From: Phascolarctobacterium sp.
Lineage (GTDB): Bacteria > Bacillota > Negativicutes > Acidaminococcales > Acidaminococcaceae
DNA length: 64,000 bases
Direction of reading: 5' to 3'
Assembly: GCA_004558595.1 (NCBI GenBank)
Contig: SFCN01000001.1
Coordinates: 10,978 to 74,977 of the forward strand
This document shows, in pieces, positions 1-64,000 of the stretch; the stretch's first letter is position 1, and every line of letters starts with the position of its first letter. Position numbers and translations under genes: made by a program. Below the pieces are notes generated by a model. The model had not been told where the DNA came from. It ran no database searches and was given only the letters and a program-made list of their open reading frames with translations.

Positions 1-469
1 GTTTCTCTTTAACTTTAGGGCTTAAGGTTTGGGCCTTATCGATAAAGAGCACGCCGTCCAAATGGTCTAATTCGTGTTGGATGCAGATCGCAAGCAGGTC
101 ATGAGCTTGCAAAAGCATTCTTTGACCGTTGCGGTCGGTGAATTCGCACTCCACATAGCTAGCGCGCTCTACCTCGCCCTCGTAGTCAGGCACGGAAAGG
201 CAGCCCTCGGCGCCCACAACCTTACCCTCTTTTTTGACGATGACAGGGTTGATGAGCTCAAACAAGCCCTCGCCCACGTCGATGACCACGATGCGCTTGG
301 AGACGCCAATTTGGGGAGCGGCCAGACCTACGCCGTCAGAAGCGTACATGGTTTCAGCCATCTCCTTCAGCAAGCGGTGGAGCTTTTTATCTATACGGGT
401 TACGGGCTCGGCTACTTTGCGCAGCACGGGATCACCAGCAACCAAAATTTTCAACGTTTTCTTAGCCAT
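1..469 (-). CDS. def: Peptide deformylase, 3' end cut by window edge
   Basis: Absent from the ORF track because there is no stop inside the window. My minus-strand translation from ATG 469-467 reads MAKKTLKILVAGDPVLRKVAEPV... It carries the deformylase motifs GVGLAAPQIG, EGCLSVP and QHELDHLDG. An AAGGAGGAAG RBS lies about 9 nt upstream. Confidence 0.9.
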   Translation of the reverse strand, partial: MAKKTLKILVAGDPVLRKVAEPVTRIDKKLHRLLKEMAETMYASDGVGLAAPQIGVSKRIVVIDVGEGLFELINPVIVKKEGKVVGAEGCLSVPDYEGEVERASYVECEFTDRNGQRMLLQAHDLLAICIQHELDHLDGVLFIDKAQTLSPKVKEK

Positions 470-14431: not shown

Positions 14432-15556
<1,125 letters not shown>

Positions 15557-15706
15557 TTAAAAATTTATGGAATTCCTCAGTCCGAAATTTGTTACACAAA
15601 CTTCTTAAGACAGCTCCCTTTTAAAAGGGAGCCTATTCGCAAAACTATACTAGTAGGGAGCCTCCCTTTGCAAAGGGAGGTGCCGAGCTTGCGAGGCGGA
15701 GGAATT

Positions 15707-22677: not shown

Positions 22678-22753
<76 letters not shown>

Positions 22754-24162: not shown

Positions 24163-24272
24163 TCCTCATCTCACAGCTAAAGTGCTGCAGGACTTAGCAC
24201 CGTTTTACGGACATCACTCCGCAATGGTTGCTGCGGCTTCACAGGGCCATTCCCTCCACCGCTCTTGATGAG
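24163..24272 (-). promoter_or_regulatory. SAM-I (S-box) riboswitch
   Basis: Minus strand reads CTCATCAAGAGCGGTGGAGGGAATGGCCCTGTGAAGCCGCAGCAACC...GGTGCTAAGTCCTGCAGC...GAGATGAGGATG. This matches the S-box core and sits upstream of metK. Confidence 0.9.
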
Positions 24273-24294
24273 TATTATTAATTTCACCTTGCAC

Positions 24295-31871: not shown

Positions 31872-31948
31872 GGCCCGGTGGTTCAGTTGGTTAGAATGCC
31901 GCCCTGTCACGGCGGAGGTCGTGGGTTCGAGTCCCATCCGGGTCGCCA
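31872..31948 (+). tRNA. tRNA-Asp (GTC)
   Basis: Hand-folded. Acceptor GGCCCGG/CCGGGUC, anticodon loop CUGUCAC, T-loop UUCGAGU, CCA encoded. Confidence 0.9.
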
Positions 31949-31950
31949 AT

Positions 31951-32025
<75 letters not shown>

Positions 32026-32026
32026 T

Positions 32027-32100
32027 AGGGGTATAGTTCAATGGTAGAGCACCGGTCTCCAAAACCGTCGATCTGGGTTCGAGTCCTAGTACCCCTGCCA
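32027..32100 (+). tRNA. tRNA-Trp (CCA)
   Basis: Hand-folded. Acceptor AGGGGUA/UACCCCU, anticodon loop CUCCAAA, T-loop UUCGAGU, CCA encoded. Confidence 0.88.
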
Positions 32101-60409: not shown

Positions 60410-62353
60410 TTAGTCAATAATGTTTTGTTTATAATCATGATAAAGAGCCTTCAGCTCCTCCATTACAGCGCACATTTCAATCTTCAAATTGGAGGCTGCG
60501 TCGTAATCTCCGGCAGCTATCGCACGACGAATACTAGTAAAGAGGCTCTTTTCTTCAAAGGAATCCTTGGCCAAGCGTGCACGCAGCACTTGAATCTTAT
60601 GCCACAGCGCCAGATCGCAGTCCGTGGAGCTTTCAGGGCTGTGTAGCTTCTTCATATCGACCACAGCTTGGTAGTATTCGGGAATCAGGCGGGTCAAAAG
60701 TTCCGTAGTCCAACGAATTAAAGCGCCCTGACGGAAGGATTCGATATATTCCTTGCGCAGGATATTGCCCTGAGTCAGCACTGCCACCTTCTCGGGATAT
60801 TGGTCGAAGGCCTTCAGGTTTTCCCAGACAGTCGCGGGAGGCTCGCCAAAGAGCTTGCTGCGCTCCTCCGCAGTGAAGTCCTCGAAGACATCCTCTTCGG
60901 TGCGGTATTGACGGTCCTTTTCTAAATAGAAGCCCTCTTCACCGGCAGCCTTGGAGATTTCCTTTTCTAGAGCAGCCAAATCCTTGCCGGATTCCACACA
61001 GGCCTTGATGCCGTCTAGGCAGGACAGATAGAAAGCGGCGATAGCGATGTAAGTATTGGTATAGGGGTTAGGAGAACGCATCTCGATGCGAGTAGCCTTC
61101 GGATTATCCAAGTCACGGATCAGTCCGGCCAGAATGGTTCTGTTCCGGGACGGATTATCAGGGCTCATGCCAAGGCTGGTAACAATGCAAACCGGCGCTT
61201 CAAAGCCGGGTTTCAGACGGTTCAAGGAGTCGATGGTGCAGGAAATAAAGGGATTGGTCACCTCGTAGTTTTTCAGGAGGCCCATCAAAGCGCCATAGCC
61301 AATAGCGGACAGGAATTCCTTGTGCATATCCTTAGGAGAGAACAGGTTGACGATTTTGCCGTTCTTCAGCTTAGCCGCCATGCCCACATGGGTATGCTCG
61401 CCACTGCCTGCTACGCCCGGAATAGGCTTAGCCTGGAAGGAAACCTCGAGGCCATTCATACGGAATACTTCCTTAACGATGATGCGAGCCAAAATCTCGT
61501 TATCGCCGGTCTGTACGCCGCTGGCGAACTTCCAGTCCACCTCCAGCTGCTCCATAACGTGAGTCATGTGACCGGAGCCATCGATTTGACCCTTAACGCC
61601 GCCACATTCCTTATGTCCCATTTCCGGCTCCAAGCCGTACAGATCCAGAATCTCCACGGTTTGCTCTAGGGCAGTGCGCACGTTGCCACGGGTACGCTGC
61701 CAATATTGCTCCTGCATCATTTGAGAGGAGCTCAGCGCTTCAATGGGAGCGTCCTCGCGAGGAGATTTTACCCAAAACTCCAGCTCGGTAGCGCTGGTAA
61801 AGATCAGTTTTTCAATATCATTAGCATTGATATGCTCCAGGCCAGGAATCACCGGATGCTTTTTGAAGAGCTCCATGATCTCGCCTTCCACATAATCAAG
61901 GGTATTCTTTAAAATAGAACGGGAGTCGACGAAATTACCATTATGCAGCAAATAGCAGGGAATGCGCAGGGTACCGATCATTCTGCCGTTTGCAGCATCA
62001 AAATGCTCGTAGTTATAATCTACAAACCAATTTACAGTTTTATCCACAACCATGTCCACGCGAGCATTGTTCAAGGTGGCAATGCCGGTGAGTACAACGG
62101 AGGAGCCGTCGGTTTGAGCAGCGCTGCCCTCCAGGAAGCTCTCCATATCCTCTAAGAAAATCTTCATGGGGATTTTTTCATCGGTATCGTTGCCAGCGAA
62201 ATCAACGCCCATCAAGGAAACGAATTTAACCTCCGGATGCAGGGACAGCAAAGCACGTAAATCCTGCTCGTTTTGTTGTTCAGGTTTAATTACATACAAT
62301 AATTCCTTATTATTCATGATTGTGCGCAGCCTAGGGCTGCTCTCCTTTCTCAA
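60410..62353 (-). CDS. Glutamine synthetase family protein, type-III-like (647 aa)
   Basis: GS C-domain pattern NRTILAGLIRD...RIEMRSPNPYTNTYIAIAAF. The length and a ~180-aa C-terminal extension fit GSIII rather than GSI. The ORF-track start is a TTG at 62353, with an alternative ATG at 62317. Confidence 0.65.
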   Translation of the reverse strand: MRKESSPRLRTIMNNKELLYVIKPEQQNEQDLRALLSLHPEVKFVSLMGVDFAGNDTDEKIPMKIFLEDMESFLEGSAAQTDGSSVVLTGIATLNNARVDMVVDKTVNWFVDYNYEHFDAANGRMIGTLRIPCYLLHNGNFVDSRSILKNTLDYVEGEIMELFKKHPVIPGLEHINANDIEKLIFTSATELEFWVKSPREDAPIEALSSSQMMQEQYWQRTRGNVRTALEQTVEILDLYGLEPEMGHKECGGVKGQIDGSGHMTHVMEQLEVDWKFASGVQTGDNEILARIIVKEVFRMNGLEVSFQAKPIPGVAGSGEHTHVGMAAKLKNGKIVNLFSPKDMHKEFLSAIGYGALMGLLKNYEVTNPFISCTIDSLNRLKPGFEAPVCIVTSLGMSPDNPSRNRTILAGLIRDLDNPKATRIEMRSPNPYTNTYIAIAAFYLSCLDGIKACVESGKDLAALEKEISKAAGEEGFYLEKDRQYRTEEDVFEDFTAEERSKLFGEPPATVWENLKAFDQYPEKVAVLTQGNILRKEYIESFRQGALIRWTTELLTRLIPEYYQAVVDMKKLHSPESSTDCDLALWHKIQVLRARLAKDSFEEKSLFTSIRRAIAAGDYDAASNLKIEMCAVMEELKALYHDYKQNIID

Positions 62354-62449
62354 TACTCCCTAAATAACGACAGAAAAAACAAAAAGACCTTTTCAAGCAG
62401 GGCCCACTTCACCCCATCTTAAAAAAGTCCTCGTTGACTGTACAGAGTA

Positions 62450-62478
62450 ATTATATCAAGTAAAGCTGGCTTTGTCCA
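62450..62478 (-). promoter_or_regulatory. Candidate promoter for the glutamine synthetase gene
   Basis: Minus-strand TGGACA - 17 nt - TATAAT. The -35 box lies in the loop of the upstream hairpin. Confidence 0.4.
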
Positions 62479-62593
62479 GCTTTTTGTGGGGAGGAAAGAT
62501 TCATATAGCCGTCTTAAAGCGCAATGTTTAAGCATCCAAGCCTATAAATTTAACACACATACTTCGCCTAACTAGTAGGTATTTAGATATTTA

Positions 62594-64000
62594 TTAGGAG
62601 CTTATGCCCTGCTCCTTGAGAAAGCTAAGCCACTGATTTTGGGTTAGCATAAAATCTACTTTGTCCAAGTTTTGGGCTCGGTGGATGCGCTGTAACATGA
62701 GGCATCCCTTTAAAGCAAGCAAATAGGCCTTGGACGCATGCTTTGGTTCTCCTTCTCCATTGCTGGGCAATGCGAAAAAGACGCAGCCAATTTGATTGGC
62801 ATAGCCCGCTAAGCCCACTACCTTGGGCGCTAGCTGGTAGCCATTGAGCAGTCCTCCCGGCTCTTTAGGCTCGCGCTTTTTAAGCGCTAGATAGTTTAGC
62901 TTATGCGCCAAATTAAGCGCAAACTGCATATAGAGCTTGGGCGCACGCACCCTGTCTCGCTTATTTTTGCTCAAGTCCTCTAGCACTACGATTGCATCGT
63001 ATTTTAAGATGAGTTTACTGAGCTCGCTTACCAGCGCAGCCATGTAGCCCAAGCGAAGGTTCTTGATTTTTTCCATTTGCAGCCAGTTTCTTTGGGCCTC
63101 AATCCGTTCTTCTTCACGCAGCGCCAGGGCTTGATAATAATTATAGCTATTGAATTCGTTATAAACCTTTTGGTAGACAATTTTTCCATCAGGGCTCACT
63201 ATAACGACCTCGGCCAAATTGTCGCCGCCTAAATACACGCCAATGCTGTTCACTTGCTTAGCCTTGAGCAGCGCTCGCATATCCTTGTTAAAGCTATAGT
63301 CGTTCCCTGTGCAGCGATAGTTAATGGCTATAGGGAAATGGGCAAGCATTTGCTCCTGCGTATAGCGTTTATCCTTGATAATATCTTGGGCCGCTTTTTT
63401 CCATTTTACCTTGCCTTGATCCATGAGCAGAGCCGCTTCTGGCAATAGTTCCTTGGTTTTACCATTTAAGTATTGGCTGATATTACGCACTATCTCGGCA
63501 GGCAGTGGATTATGATCGTGATCTAGTTTGTTAACGATAACACTGCCCTGCTTATGGCTTACCATAGCAGGCGCTGAAGCAGGACGGTAGTACACTTCTA
63601 CGCCGCCTAAAAGCTTCAAGATGCGTTCTTCTTTATTTATCTCATTGAACAAGGCGCGCCACAGCTGGGTTTGCTCGTCCTCTACCTCTGGATTTAAGGA
63701 GCTTTTAATAAAATCCTTATTTTCTAGACGAAAAAGGAATAAATCCCCTGCTTCCACCAGATCTTCAACACTGGCTTCAGCGATTTTTTGCCAACGTAGT
63801 CCATAGGTAAATTCGTTCACATGGGTAATAAATTCTGTCCAAGATTCATAATCAAGGGTTTCTCTCAGCTTGGACATATCAAAGAAGCTAAAGTCCTTGT
63901 AGGCTTTAATAAAGCGTTTAGCTAGGTCTATGCGCTGGGCGAGCGCCGCTTTATACCCTGCCTCATCCCCTGTTTTGGTCAAATATTGTTTCAGATAGGG
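62594..64000 (-). CDS. Cas12a (Cpf1)-like protein, C-terminal ~469 codons; RuvC-I/III aspartates substituted and Nuc domain absent; 5' part lies beyond the window
   Basis: The frame is open to the window edge. The track's M is an internal TTG preceded by PYLKQY. The ORF is collinear by eye with Cas12a WED/RuvC blocks: DLFLFRLENKDF, IIKDKRYTQEQMLAHFPIAINY, RNWLQMEKIKNLRLGYMAALVSEL, YDAIVVLEDL, HKLNYLALK, GGLLNGYQL, KAYLLALKGCLMLQRI. Confidence 0.8.
   Translation of the reverse strand, partial: PYLKQYLTKTGDEAGYKAALAQRIDLAKRFIKAYKDFSFFDMSKLRETLDYESWTEFITHVNEFTYGLRWQKIAEASVEDLVEAGDLFLFRLENKDFIKSSLNPEVEDEQTQLWRALFNEINKEERILKLLGGVEVYYRPASAPAMVSHKQGSVIVNKLDHDHNPLPAEIVRNISQYLNGKTKELLPEAALLMDQGKVKWKKAAQDIIKDKRYTQEQMLAHFPIAINYRCTGNDYSFNKDMRALLKAKQVNSIGVYLGGDNLAEVVIVSPDGKIVYQKVYNEFNSYNYYQALALREEERIEAQRNWLQMEKIKNLRLGYMAALVSELSKLILKYDAIVVLEDLSKNKRDRVRAPKLYMQFALNLAHKLNYLALKKREPKEPGGLLNGYQLAPKVVGLAGYANQIGCVFFALPSNGEGEPKHASKAYLLALKGCLMLQRIHRAQNLDKVDFMLTQNQWLSFLKEQGISS

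Follow-up and report, generated by a model that had tools for sequence, protein, structure and literature searches.

Canonical type V-A loci encode Cas12a together with a CRISPR array with 36-nt repeats, and usually with cas4-cas1-cas2. The conversion of a nuclease into an RNA-guided binder is an emerging theme, exemplified by TldR, dCas12f-sigmaE, Cas12k and Cas12m. TldR proteins are nuclease-dead, TnpB-like repressors which have a deteriorated RuvC domain and a truncated C-terminus and use fixed guides of 9-16 nt (PMC10705468), and RNA-guided binding without cleavage of the target DNA is also found in the RuvC-inactive type V effectors Cas12k of V-K CRISPR-associated transposons (CAST), Cas12m (V-M), Cas12c (V-C), dCas12f-sigmaE (PMC13472631) and V-O/V-P (PMC12669027). 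The V-A RNA called CreR combines a handle, PsiR1, with PsiS and a degenerate PsiR2 (bioRxiv 10.1101/2023.03.10.532045). Here we compare these systems with a locus at one end of a 64,000-nt stretch of DNA, hereafter called the window, from Phascolarctobacterium sp. (assembly GCA_004558595.1, contig SFCN01000001.1, positions 10,978-74,977), in which the gene of a Cas12a-derived protein is followed by an element resembling a CRISPR RNA (crRNA).

The window contains the 3' part of a gene from a family of domesticated Cas12a derivatives that is both small and old. The family has kept the bilobed Cas12a fold, the handle-binding WED region and the pre-crRNA RNase site. It no longer has the RuvC-I Asp, any of the Nuc domain, a portion of the REC lobe or the lysine of the PI domain that reads the protospacer adjacent motif (PAM). 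In place of an array, each protein gene is accompanied by a single fixed crRNA-like RNA gene formed by a handle, a guide-like stretch and a 3' hairpin. We have very little doubt that the family is functional, that it derives from Cas12a but is nuclease-dead, and that an RNA partner is dedicated to it. Our preferred reading goes further, with a probability that we put at just under 0.6: these proteins would be domesticated, array-less forms of dead Cas12a (dCas12a) in Phascolarctobacterium which, equipped with one hard-wired crRNA-like guide, bind without cleaving. The features of the window on which the comparison is based are the following.

62594..64000, minus strand: C-terminal 468 codons plus stop of the Cas12a-derived protein, from homology and residue mapping
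62566..62583, minus strand: crRNA-like 5' handle AAUACCUACUAGUUAGGC, with a CCUA/UAGG stem and a 5-nt loop, nearly invariant in 14 loci
62552..62565, minus strand: nearly invariant 14-mer, GAAGUAUGUGUGUU in the window and GAAGUAUGUGUAUU as the family consensus, adjoining the handle on its 3' side
62543..62551, minus strand: variable AU-rich tail AAAUUUAUA, the end of the guide-like segment
62507..62542, minus strand: 3' stem-loop domain, with outer GGCU/GGCU and inner CUUAAA/UUUAAG pairing and a variable apical loop
62505..62506, minus strand: breakpoint, from 62505 downward the window being homologous to purL-glnA strains without the gene

Cas12a ancestry and the catalytic regions

The minus-strand frame runs uninterrupted from 64000 to the TAA at 62596-62594 and its N-terminal part lies beyond the window edge, so that the fragment available comprises part of PI, WED-III, RuvC-I, the bridge helix, RuvC-II and RuvC-III. 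In a phmmer search of PDB, this 468-residue fragment aligns over its whole length with AmCas12a (8kgf, E=1.9e-81) and AsCas12a (E~1e-70), the matches with the As and Am proteins scoring 242-277 bits vs ~155 bits for Lb, Fn and MbCas12a. The fragment also matches Pfam RuvC_1 (E=3e-46) and obtains 290.5 bits with the NCBIfam model TIGR04330 (cas_Cpf1), for which the cut-off is 300; best homology to a non-Cas12 family was not seen in these searches.

Catalytic positions were assigned by residue-level alignment, using AsCas12a numbering. In the window copy, D908 of RuvC-I is changed to Tyr (IGVYLGGDNL vs IGIDRGERNL) and D1263 of RuvC-III to His (HASKAY vs DANGAY); the RuvC-II glutamate E993 is kept (VVLEDL), as are all the pre-crRNA RNase residues, H800, K809 and K860. 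The Nuc domain is gone, because the alignment leaps from As ~1065 to ~1263 over ~10 residues. An original prediction, made from the sequence of the window alone, had proposed an open frame from the window edge to the stop, its derivation from Cas12a, the replacement of the RuvC-I and RuvC-III aspartates by Tyr and His, the retention of the RuvC-II Glu and of the processing residues, and the loss of Nuc; all of these proposals agree with our alignments, which place no acidic residue at RuvC-I or RuvC-III of the window copy and reveal no Nuc domain.

The extent of the family depends on the search. A word-indexed search found three close clusters only, and GTDB genomes contributed four loci in Phascolarctobacterium metagenome-assembled genomes (MAGs), with intact open reading frames (ORFs) of 998-1057 aa that all have the canonical Cas12a N-terminus. 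A profile search yielded ~22 clusters of full-length proteins (960-1058 aa, with identities as low as 48%), which score at least 1056 bits vs at most 356 for canonical Cas12a and lack Pfam NUC (PF18510) without exception. Phascolarctobacterium MAGs are the known hosts throughout, and two members bear the NCBI label 'type V CRISPR-associated protein Cas12a/Cpf1 [Phascolarctobacterium sp.]'. Since a HMMER pass over 1.84 billion representatives recovers essentially one 50% cluster for the family among ~1,280 Cas12a-like ones, the family is rare.

The residue states were tabulated for 27 members aligned with canonical Cas12a. None of the 27 has the RuvC-I Asp, which is mostly replaced by His, with Arg or Tyr in subclades; the RuvC-II Glu is present in every one, the RuvC-III position is variable, and the spacing from the RuvC-II Glu to RuvC-III is 76-95 residues vs 251-255 in the canonical proteins. 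The RNase lysines equivalent to As K809 and K860 are invariant. Of two lysines of the As structures, the reader of T-rich PAMs in PI (K607) and the WED lysine (K548), the former is replaced by A, S or G in all 21 full-length members, vs K or R in the aligned canonical proteins (motif LPKVFFSK), and the latter is kept in these 21 members as K, or as R in three. The REC lobe is shortened, with REC2 trimmed; the full-length protein of L005 matches PDB entries by phmmer with E=3.4e-114. With REC, Nuc and the PI lysine, what permits cleavage has thus been remodelled as a set, together with some of the PAM-reading apparatus.

Orthologues in related genomes share the Nuc deletion and the loss of the RuvC-I Asp, and their Nei-Gojobori dN/dS lies between 0.09 and 0.24 for every pair with unsaturated synonymous sites; judging from these sequence comparisons, selection on the family is strongly purifying. 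Structural prediction provides the same picture. The AlphaFold2 model of one member, P0018 (pLDDT 86.5, pTM 0.75), has no Nuc domain, and when it was submitted to Foldseek the top 50 hits were all Cas12a, with As/AmCas12a at a query-normalized TM score (TMq) of 0.76-0.78. The target-normalized score (TMt) is only ~0.6, as expected if target domains are missing.

The nearest relatives of canonical length in the search of representatives are P0070 (1264 aa) and P0071 (1235 aa), with 708 and 549 bits vs 400 for the next match. In these proteins the RuvC-I Asp is changed to Asn, but a segment of the size of Nuc is still there, as are the Asp of RuvC-III and the Lys/Arg that reads the PAM. They may constitute a second dead lineage or an intermediate one, and their residue states suggest that the nuclease decayed step by step, which is also the course described for TldR (PMC10705468).

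The RNA element 3' of the gene

Downstream of the gene, the original prediction had seen only a hairpin before glutamine synthetase. What lies there is a conserved, crRNA-like non-coding element of ~77 nt that directly follows the stop codon (window 62583-62507, minus strand). The element is present in 14/14 loci examined, 0-20 nt past the stop or, in L216, ~55 nt past it, and has the order AAUACCUACUAGUUAGGC / GAAGUAUGUGUGUU / AAAUUUAUA / GGCU UGGAUG CUUAAA CAUUGCGC UUUAAG AC GGCU. Its core is 81-99% identical between loci having a proportion of synonymous differences (pS) of 0.8-0.9, which is saturated, and proteins that are 53-60% identical; in the upstream intergenic DNA of the same lineages, which serves as an internal control, no conservation was found. 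Rfam contains no family that matches the element.

The handle can be written AAUACCUAC...UAGG. Conservation sets in exactly at AAUA, and AAU is where a mature Cas12a crRNA starts. By eye, the handle resembles that of AsCas12a/LbCas12a, AAUUUCUACU(C/A)U..GUAGAU, with which it has in common the 5' AAU, the CUAC arm and a short stem-loop; L220 even has AAUAUCUAC here. The variants of the handle consist of U.G pairs (L216, L220) and loop changes. Directly downstream, the 14-mer (GAAGTATGTGTRTT in DNA letters) shows single substitutions only, in hosts that range from 32 to 48% GC, and occupies the place where the PAM-proximal part of a Cas12a guide would be. The distance from the handle to the 3' hairpin then varies among loci from ~20 to 32 nt, with a 9-nt insertion in L218.

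The 3' stem-loop is possibly a degenerate second repeat, similar to PsiR2. Its helices are 86-95% paired across loci, and the changes are mostly one-sided (G.U<->G:C), apart from a G:C to A:U change seen by manual inspection in L215; since such changes are one-sided, the structure is compatible with the data but not proven. On neither strand does the folding stability of the element exceed that of shuffled sequence, as would suit an RNA of the guide type, constrained by protein contacts and base pairing, rather than a large scaffold. Because the window has neither a promoter nor a terminator between the stop codon and the element, the simplest model is co-transcription with the gene followed by self-processing at the RNase site.

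A scan of metagenomes with the handle pattern returned ~120 mostly chance matches from soil and marine samples, among which only L074 (identical to L006) is real. (Of six lineages, L005, L006, L002, L214, L219 and L220, we observed that they carry a tail (A/G)AGAAAAU(C/U) 3-6 nt past the 3' hairpin. At this semi-conserved position the window has UAUGAAUC, which is also present in purL-glnA strains without the gene.)

Genomic context, mechanism and alternatives

No CRISPR array and no further copy of the handle were found in the window or in nine family loci considered with +-10 kb, nor does the canonical Cas12a repeat TCTAC-N3-6-GTAGA occur in the window or the loci. Pfam searches of the loci examined found no adjoining genes for Cas1/Cas2/Cas4, Tn7-like functions (tnsB/tnsC/tniQ), Mu or TnpA. 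The earlier claim that adaptation genes and an array are missing downstream is therefore borne out within the window, whereas the arrays or Tn7-like partners that might have been expected near related genes do not appear in the nine family loci. The neighbours differ from locus to locus and include glnA/galU, fba, uvrB, gltX, thrA and the ylxM-ffh operon, and the lineages share only ~20 nt of sequence upstream of the start codon.

The gene is missing from the strains with a GlnA identical to that of the window (L140-L145), in which glnA is immediately preceded by purL. Their homology to the window resumes 2 nt past the RNA element, at 62505, and the unit of gene plus RNA therefore ends with the RNA element. 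Since the intact locus L213 has galU upstream, this junction was produced by a rearrangement rather than by a clean insertion. Among IMG/VR viral contigs there is no family member, the sole match being of the canonical type with 31% identity.

The following observations concern the surroundings of the family loci. In five contexts that are not otherwise related the gene has divergently upstream (L216 1410-1971, L217 238-805, L218 8971-9697, L004 7688-8539, L215 8825-9703) either toxin-antitoxin genes (ParE/Phd twice, HEPN/MNT once) or PDDEXK_2 'transposase-like' genes. Two divergent members, P0026 (L217 4324-9464) and P0024 (L220 5277-10364), both lie immediately upstream of the ylxM-ffh-rpsP-rimM-trmD-rplS operon, and L214 and L219 have in common a downstream gene of 751 aa and an M23 peptidase. 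Just upstream of P0029, in L214 (6200-9471), a sigma-70 gene is seemingly split by TnpB (OrfB_IS605/Cas12f1-like_TNB). L144 (6977-8950), which has no dead cas12a, shows purL interrupted by unannotated ORFs of 482 and 162 aa on the opposite strand, which have no Pfam match. In the window itself, an extended -10 promoter of glnA with the near-consensus TGGACA-17-TG-TATAAT is placed ~25 nt past the RNA element (62478-62450, minus strand), followed by a glnA leader of ~130 nt (62318-62478, minus strand) in which a GC hairpin precedes a T-run, a candidate attenuator without a match in Rfam. Elsewhere the window contains a SAM riboswitch (24163-24274, minus strand, 84.5 bits), a cluster of three tRNA genes (31872-32097, plus strand) and a single tRNA gene (22681-22753, minus strand).

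For the expression and processing of the RNA, its guide function, DNA binding and a regulatory outcome, we infer the following steps. The RNA would be transcribed as the 3' untranslated region (UTR) of the gene's own mRNA, after which the RNase site, as its retained residues suggest, would cut it at the 5' edge of the handle. It would then remain bound as the sole, hard-wired guide, and the resulting ribonucleoprotein would bind complementary nucleic acid without cutting. The most probable target would be chromosomal DNA, at a conserved site whose occupation would prevent transcription as in the case of TldR or CreR.

Several results weigh against this mechanism, and the lack of a found target is the main weakness of its guide interpretation. 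Lineage-specific guide-like segments gave no target in their own loci, and the invariant 14-mer gave no match in 364 kb of family-linked DNA. The genes' own promoters, taken as 400 nt upstream of 12 genes, contained 0 PAM-proximal matches of at least 7 nt (shuffled expectation 0.15-0.75), and BLAST searches of phages and plasmids with the element returned nothing meaningful. The 14-nt core, which varies no more than the handle although the hosts differ widely, could equally be a scaffold bound by protein. Proof of the RNA fold by covariation was sought, but the result was not significant, in a test that had the handle helix indexed one column off, and such support for the fold is weak. The PAM-reading lysine is lost in every member, so that PAM-dependent unwinding of double-stranded DNA (dsDNA) is not assured, and the RNase His is changed to Tyr in one subclade (P0031-P0036), though it is His in the window and most members. 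Finally, the gene is dispensable and decaying in some strains, since it is absent from L140-L145, frameshifted in L001, split in L002 and represented by a product of 537 aa in the case of the window.

Some candidate targets were considered individually. Autoregulation of the CreR type was discarded in view of the lack of guide matches in the genes' own promoters, and a local target sought with exact 9-nt prefixes gave only scattered single matches at inconsistent positions. A scan of IMG/VR identified an intergenic 20/20 match to the guide-like segment of the window in L146 (IMGVR_UViG_3300037827_000428, 93-116, minus strand), ~50 nt upstream of an ORF and preceded by AATTT, a T-rich 5' flank. 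About one such match is expected by chance without a PAM and 0.02-0.1 with a PAM; given that its GC content differs (36% vs 48% for the window) and that the TTTV-reading lysine is lost in the family, the match is probably due to chance and constitutes a weak lead only. The leader in the queA-tgt intergenic region of the window (15545-15660, minus strand), a candidate target or source, has three colinear blocks that match the RNA element, among them the window's only other CCTACTAG, but local alignment gave it a score of 26 vs a mean of 27.8 for shuffled controls, and the resemblance was put down to chance.

The points on decay lead to the rival explanation that the gene is a relic, namely the drifting pseudogene remnant of a V-A effector that has lost its array and adaptation module. 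For the window copy, there are observations in its favour. The exact protein of the window is represented in the protein collection by P0009, which has only 537 aa and begins at an internal Met, 69 codons past the window edge; this start must mark the end of a contig, a frameshift or a truncation, and the window copy, whose intact ORF of ~1000 aa would begin MSIFDSFTRRNS, may thus be truncated. Moreover, the copy in L001, 94% identical, has a frameshift in a REC linker, the sequence of P0007, of the same 90% cluster as the window, diverges mid-gene, and the copy in L002 (4242-7252) is split into three ORFs beside insertion sequence genes (HTH_Tnp_2, Y1_Tnp). The gene is absent from strains with identical GlnA, and the Tyr at RuvC-I sets the window apart from all its close relatives, which generally have His. 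On the other hand, L213 encodes an intact copy of 1004 aa (P0008) in the same 90% cluster and the same glnA context, and lineage-specific nonsynonymous/synonymous counts are no higher for the window (18/20) than for intact L213 (15/17), so that the C-terminal part is without extra relaxation. The RNA element remains intact even in L002. Taking also into account the ~22 intact full-length clusters of uniform architecture, the dN/dS of ~0.1 and the conservation of the neighbouring RNA, we consider the relic explanation rather unlikely, and for the family as a whole, for which the original prediction had offered it as the alternative, it is rejected. The corresponding proposal of an intact, miniaturised, DNase-dead Cas12a derivative that handles a guide RNA stands at the level of the family, with its ~22 full-length clusters under purifying selection, whereas the window copy itself may not be intact, in view of its 537-aa product. 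(Separately, the start of the L002 contig, 1-121, has a perfect 30-nt direct repeat with copies spaced 91 nt.)

Other explanations accept a functional protein but assign a different role to the complex. The RNA might not be a guide at all, the protein binding or processing RNA and the element acting in cis or in autoregulation within the 3' UTR, for example on mRNA stability via the RNase; alternatively, the complex might target RNA rather than dsDNA, for which Cas12a2 and Cas12g are precedents in type V (PMC12669027). The invariance of the 14-nt core, the lost PAM-reading lysine, the retained RNase site, the absence of a DNA target in the DNA searched and the location of the element in the gene's own 3' UTR would all suit this explanation, which we nevertheless judge improbable: the full DNA-handling architecture (REC1, WED, the PI fold, bridge helix and RuvC scaffold) is under purifying selection, more than an RNase or a handle-binding protein would need, the PAM-contacting WED lysine is kept, and the length variation after the 14-mer resembles the PAM-distal part of a guide. 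Considerably less credible is a dead Cas12a of mobile elements that acts as an anti-CRISPR by mimicry or competition, soaking up the crRNAs of the host's V-A system or occupying its targets, as proposed for array-less, RuvC-dead Cas9 of phages (PMC10910872). Patchy presence and variable locations, often beside toxin-antitoxin or PDDEXK_2 genes, speak for such a role, but viral contigs of IMG/VR yielded no member of the family, the flanking genes are of housekeeping type (glnA, galU, uvrB, fba, ffh operon, gltX), and each protein comes with an RNA of its own, the handle of which has departed from that of canonical Cas12a. We give hardly any weight to an RNA-guided transposition or homing module resembling Cas12k/CAST or TnpB, in which the RNA would be a scaffold at the transposon end and the flank its guide. 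The unit does end exactly with the RNA element and occurs in many different contexts, and the guide of TnpB is indeed the flank beyond the right end (PMC10705468); but no tnsB, tnsC, tniQ, TnpA or Mu gene adjoins any locus, a conserved left end is lacking (the shared 5' sequence being just those ~20 nt), the supposed empty site, purL-glnA vs galU-gene-glnA, reflects a rearrangement, and a Cas12a-type handle places the guide directly after itself and not 55 nt later. The transposon model was accordingly set aside. Binding without cleavage under a single fixed guide remains the reading that we prefer.

Comparison with known systems

The closest system to that of the preferred reading is Cas12a itself, in particular its As/AmCas12a branch from Acidaminococcaceae, the same bacterial family as the host. 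The likeness comprises sequence and fold homology over the whole length, the conservation of H800/K809/K860, the WED lysine, the bridge helix and the RuvC-II Glu, and, in the RNA, a 5' handle like that of a crRNA, immediately followed by the place of the guide. The differences are that RuvC-I has H, R or Y, RuvC-III is unconserved, Nuc is deleted, REC is shortened and the PAM lysine is lost, and that the loci examined have neither an array nor cas4-cas1-cas2 but a single fixed RNA in the 3' UTR. The family consequently fails the hallmarks of type V-A, namely the DED triad, Nuc, array plus adaptation genes and the PAM lysine. In its mode of action it would most resemble TldR or binding programmed by CreR.

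TldR proteins resemble the family in their dead RuvC, the loss of nuclease-associated C-terminal parts, the single adjacent gene for a fixed guide-like RNA whose guide segment is short and conserved, the absence of an array and the scattered, non-transposon contexts. They differ in that the family descends from Cas12a and not directly from TnpB, and has ~1000 aa vs ~350-400 aa; its RNA would carry the guide 3' of a short handle of the crRNA type, whereas that of TldR has an omega-RNA scaffold of ~100 nt. Moreover, the family has no consistent neighbouring target gene, and its target and repression would have to be deduced from the analogy. With CreR/CreA the RNA shares a first-repeat remnant containing the 5' handle, a fixed 'spacer' and a degenerate second-repeat stem-loop, and CreR too binds without cleavage. 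However, CreR is encoded upstream of cas12a, acts on the promoter of that gene and works with an active Cas12a and a real array, whereas in the family the effector is dead, the array is missing, the RNA is downstream and the gene's own promoter is unmatched.

The RuvC-inactive type V effectors are not derived from V-A, and most of them keep arrays or partners such as Tn7 genes or a sigma factor. None of them is reported to combine a deletion equivalent to Nuc/TNB on a Cas12a scaffold with a single guide fused to its own 3' UTR, and a dead lineage derived from V-A finds no mention in the 2025 CRISPR classification (PMC12669027), the FLSHclust survey (PMC10910872) or full-text literature searches. 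We would more tentatively propose that the family is an exaptation of type V-A, the first of its kind, in which a natural dCas12a of ~1000 aa with a self-processed 3' UTR guide and a new or relaxed PAM serves as an RNA-guided transcription factor at a single, ultra-conserved site of the Phascolarctobacterium genomes, having passed through intermediates of the P0070/P0071 type.

Should the preferred reading hold, the family would reveal what Cas12a needs for binding alone, Nuc, REC2 and the PAM reader having been altered together by nature. It would also provide a compact natural dCas12a, ~250-300 aa smaller than engineered dCas12a, with a self-processed guide on a single transcript and maybe a different PAM, and, in a genus that is abundant in the gut, a regulatory circuit open to testing, since the invariant 14-nt core allows a direct search for its target in any complete genome of a carrier. 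Compared with the known systems, the family adds another independent loss of RuvC beside those of Cas12k, Cas12m, Cas12c and dCas12f.

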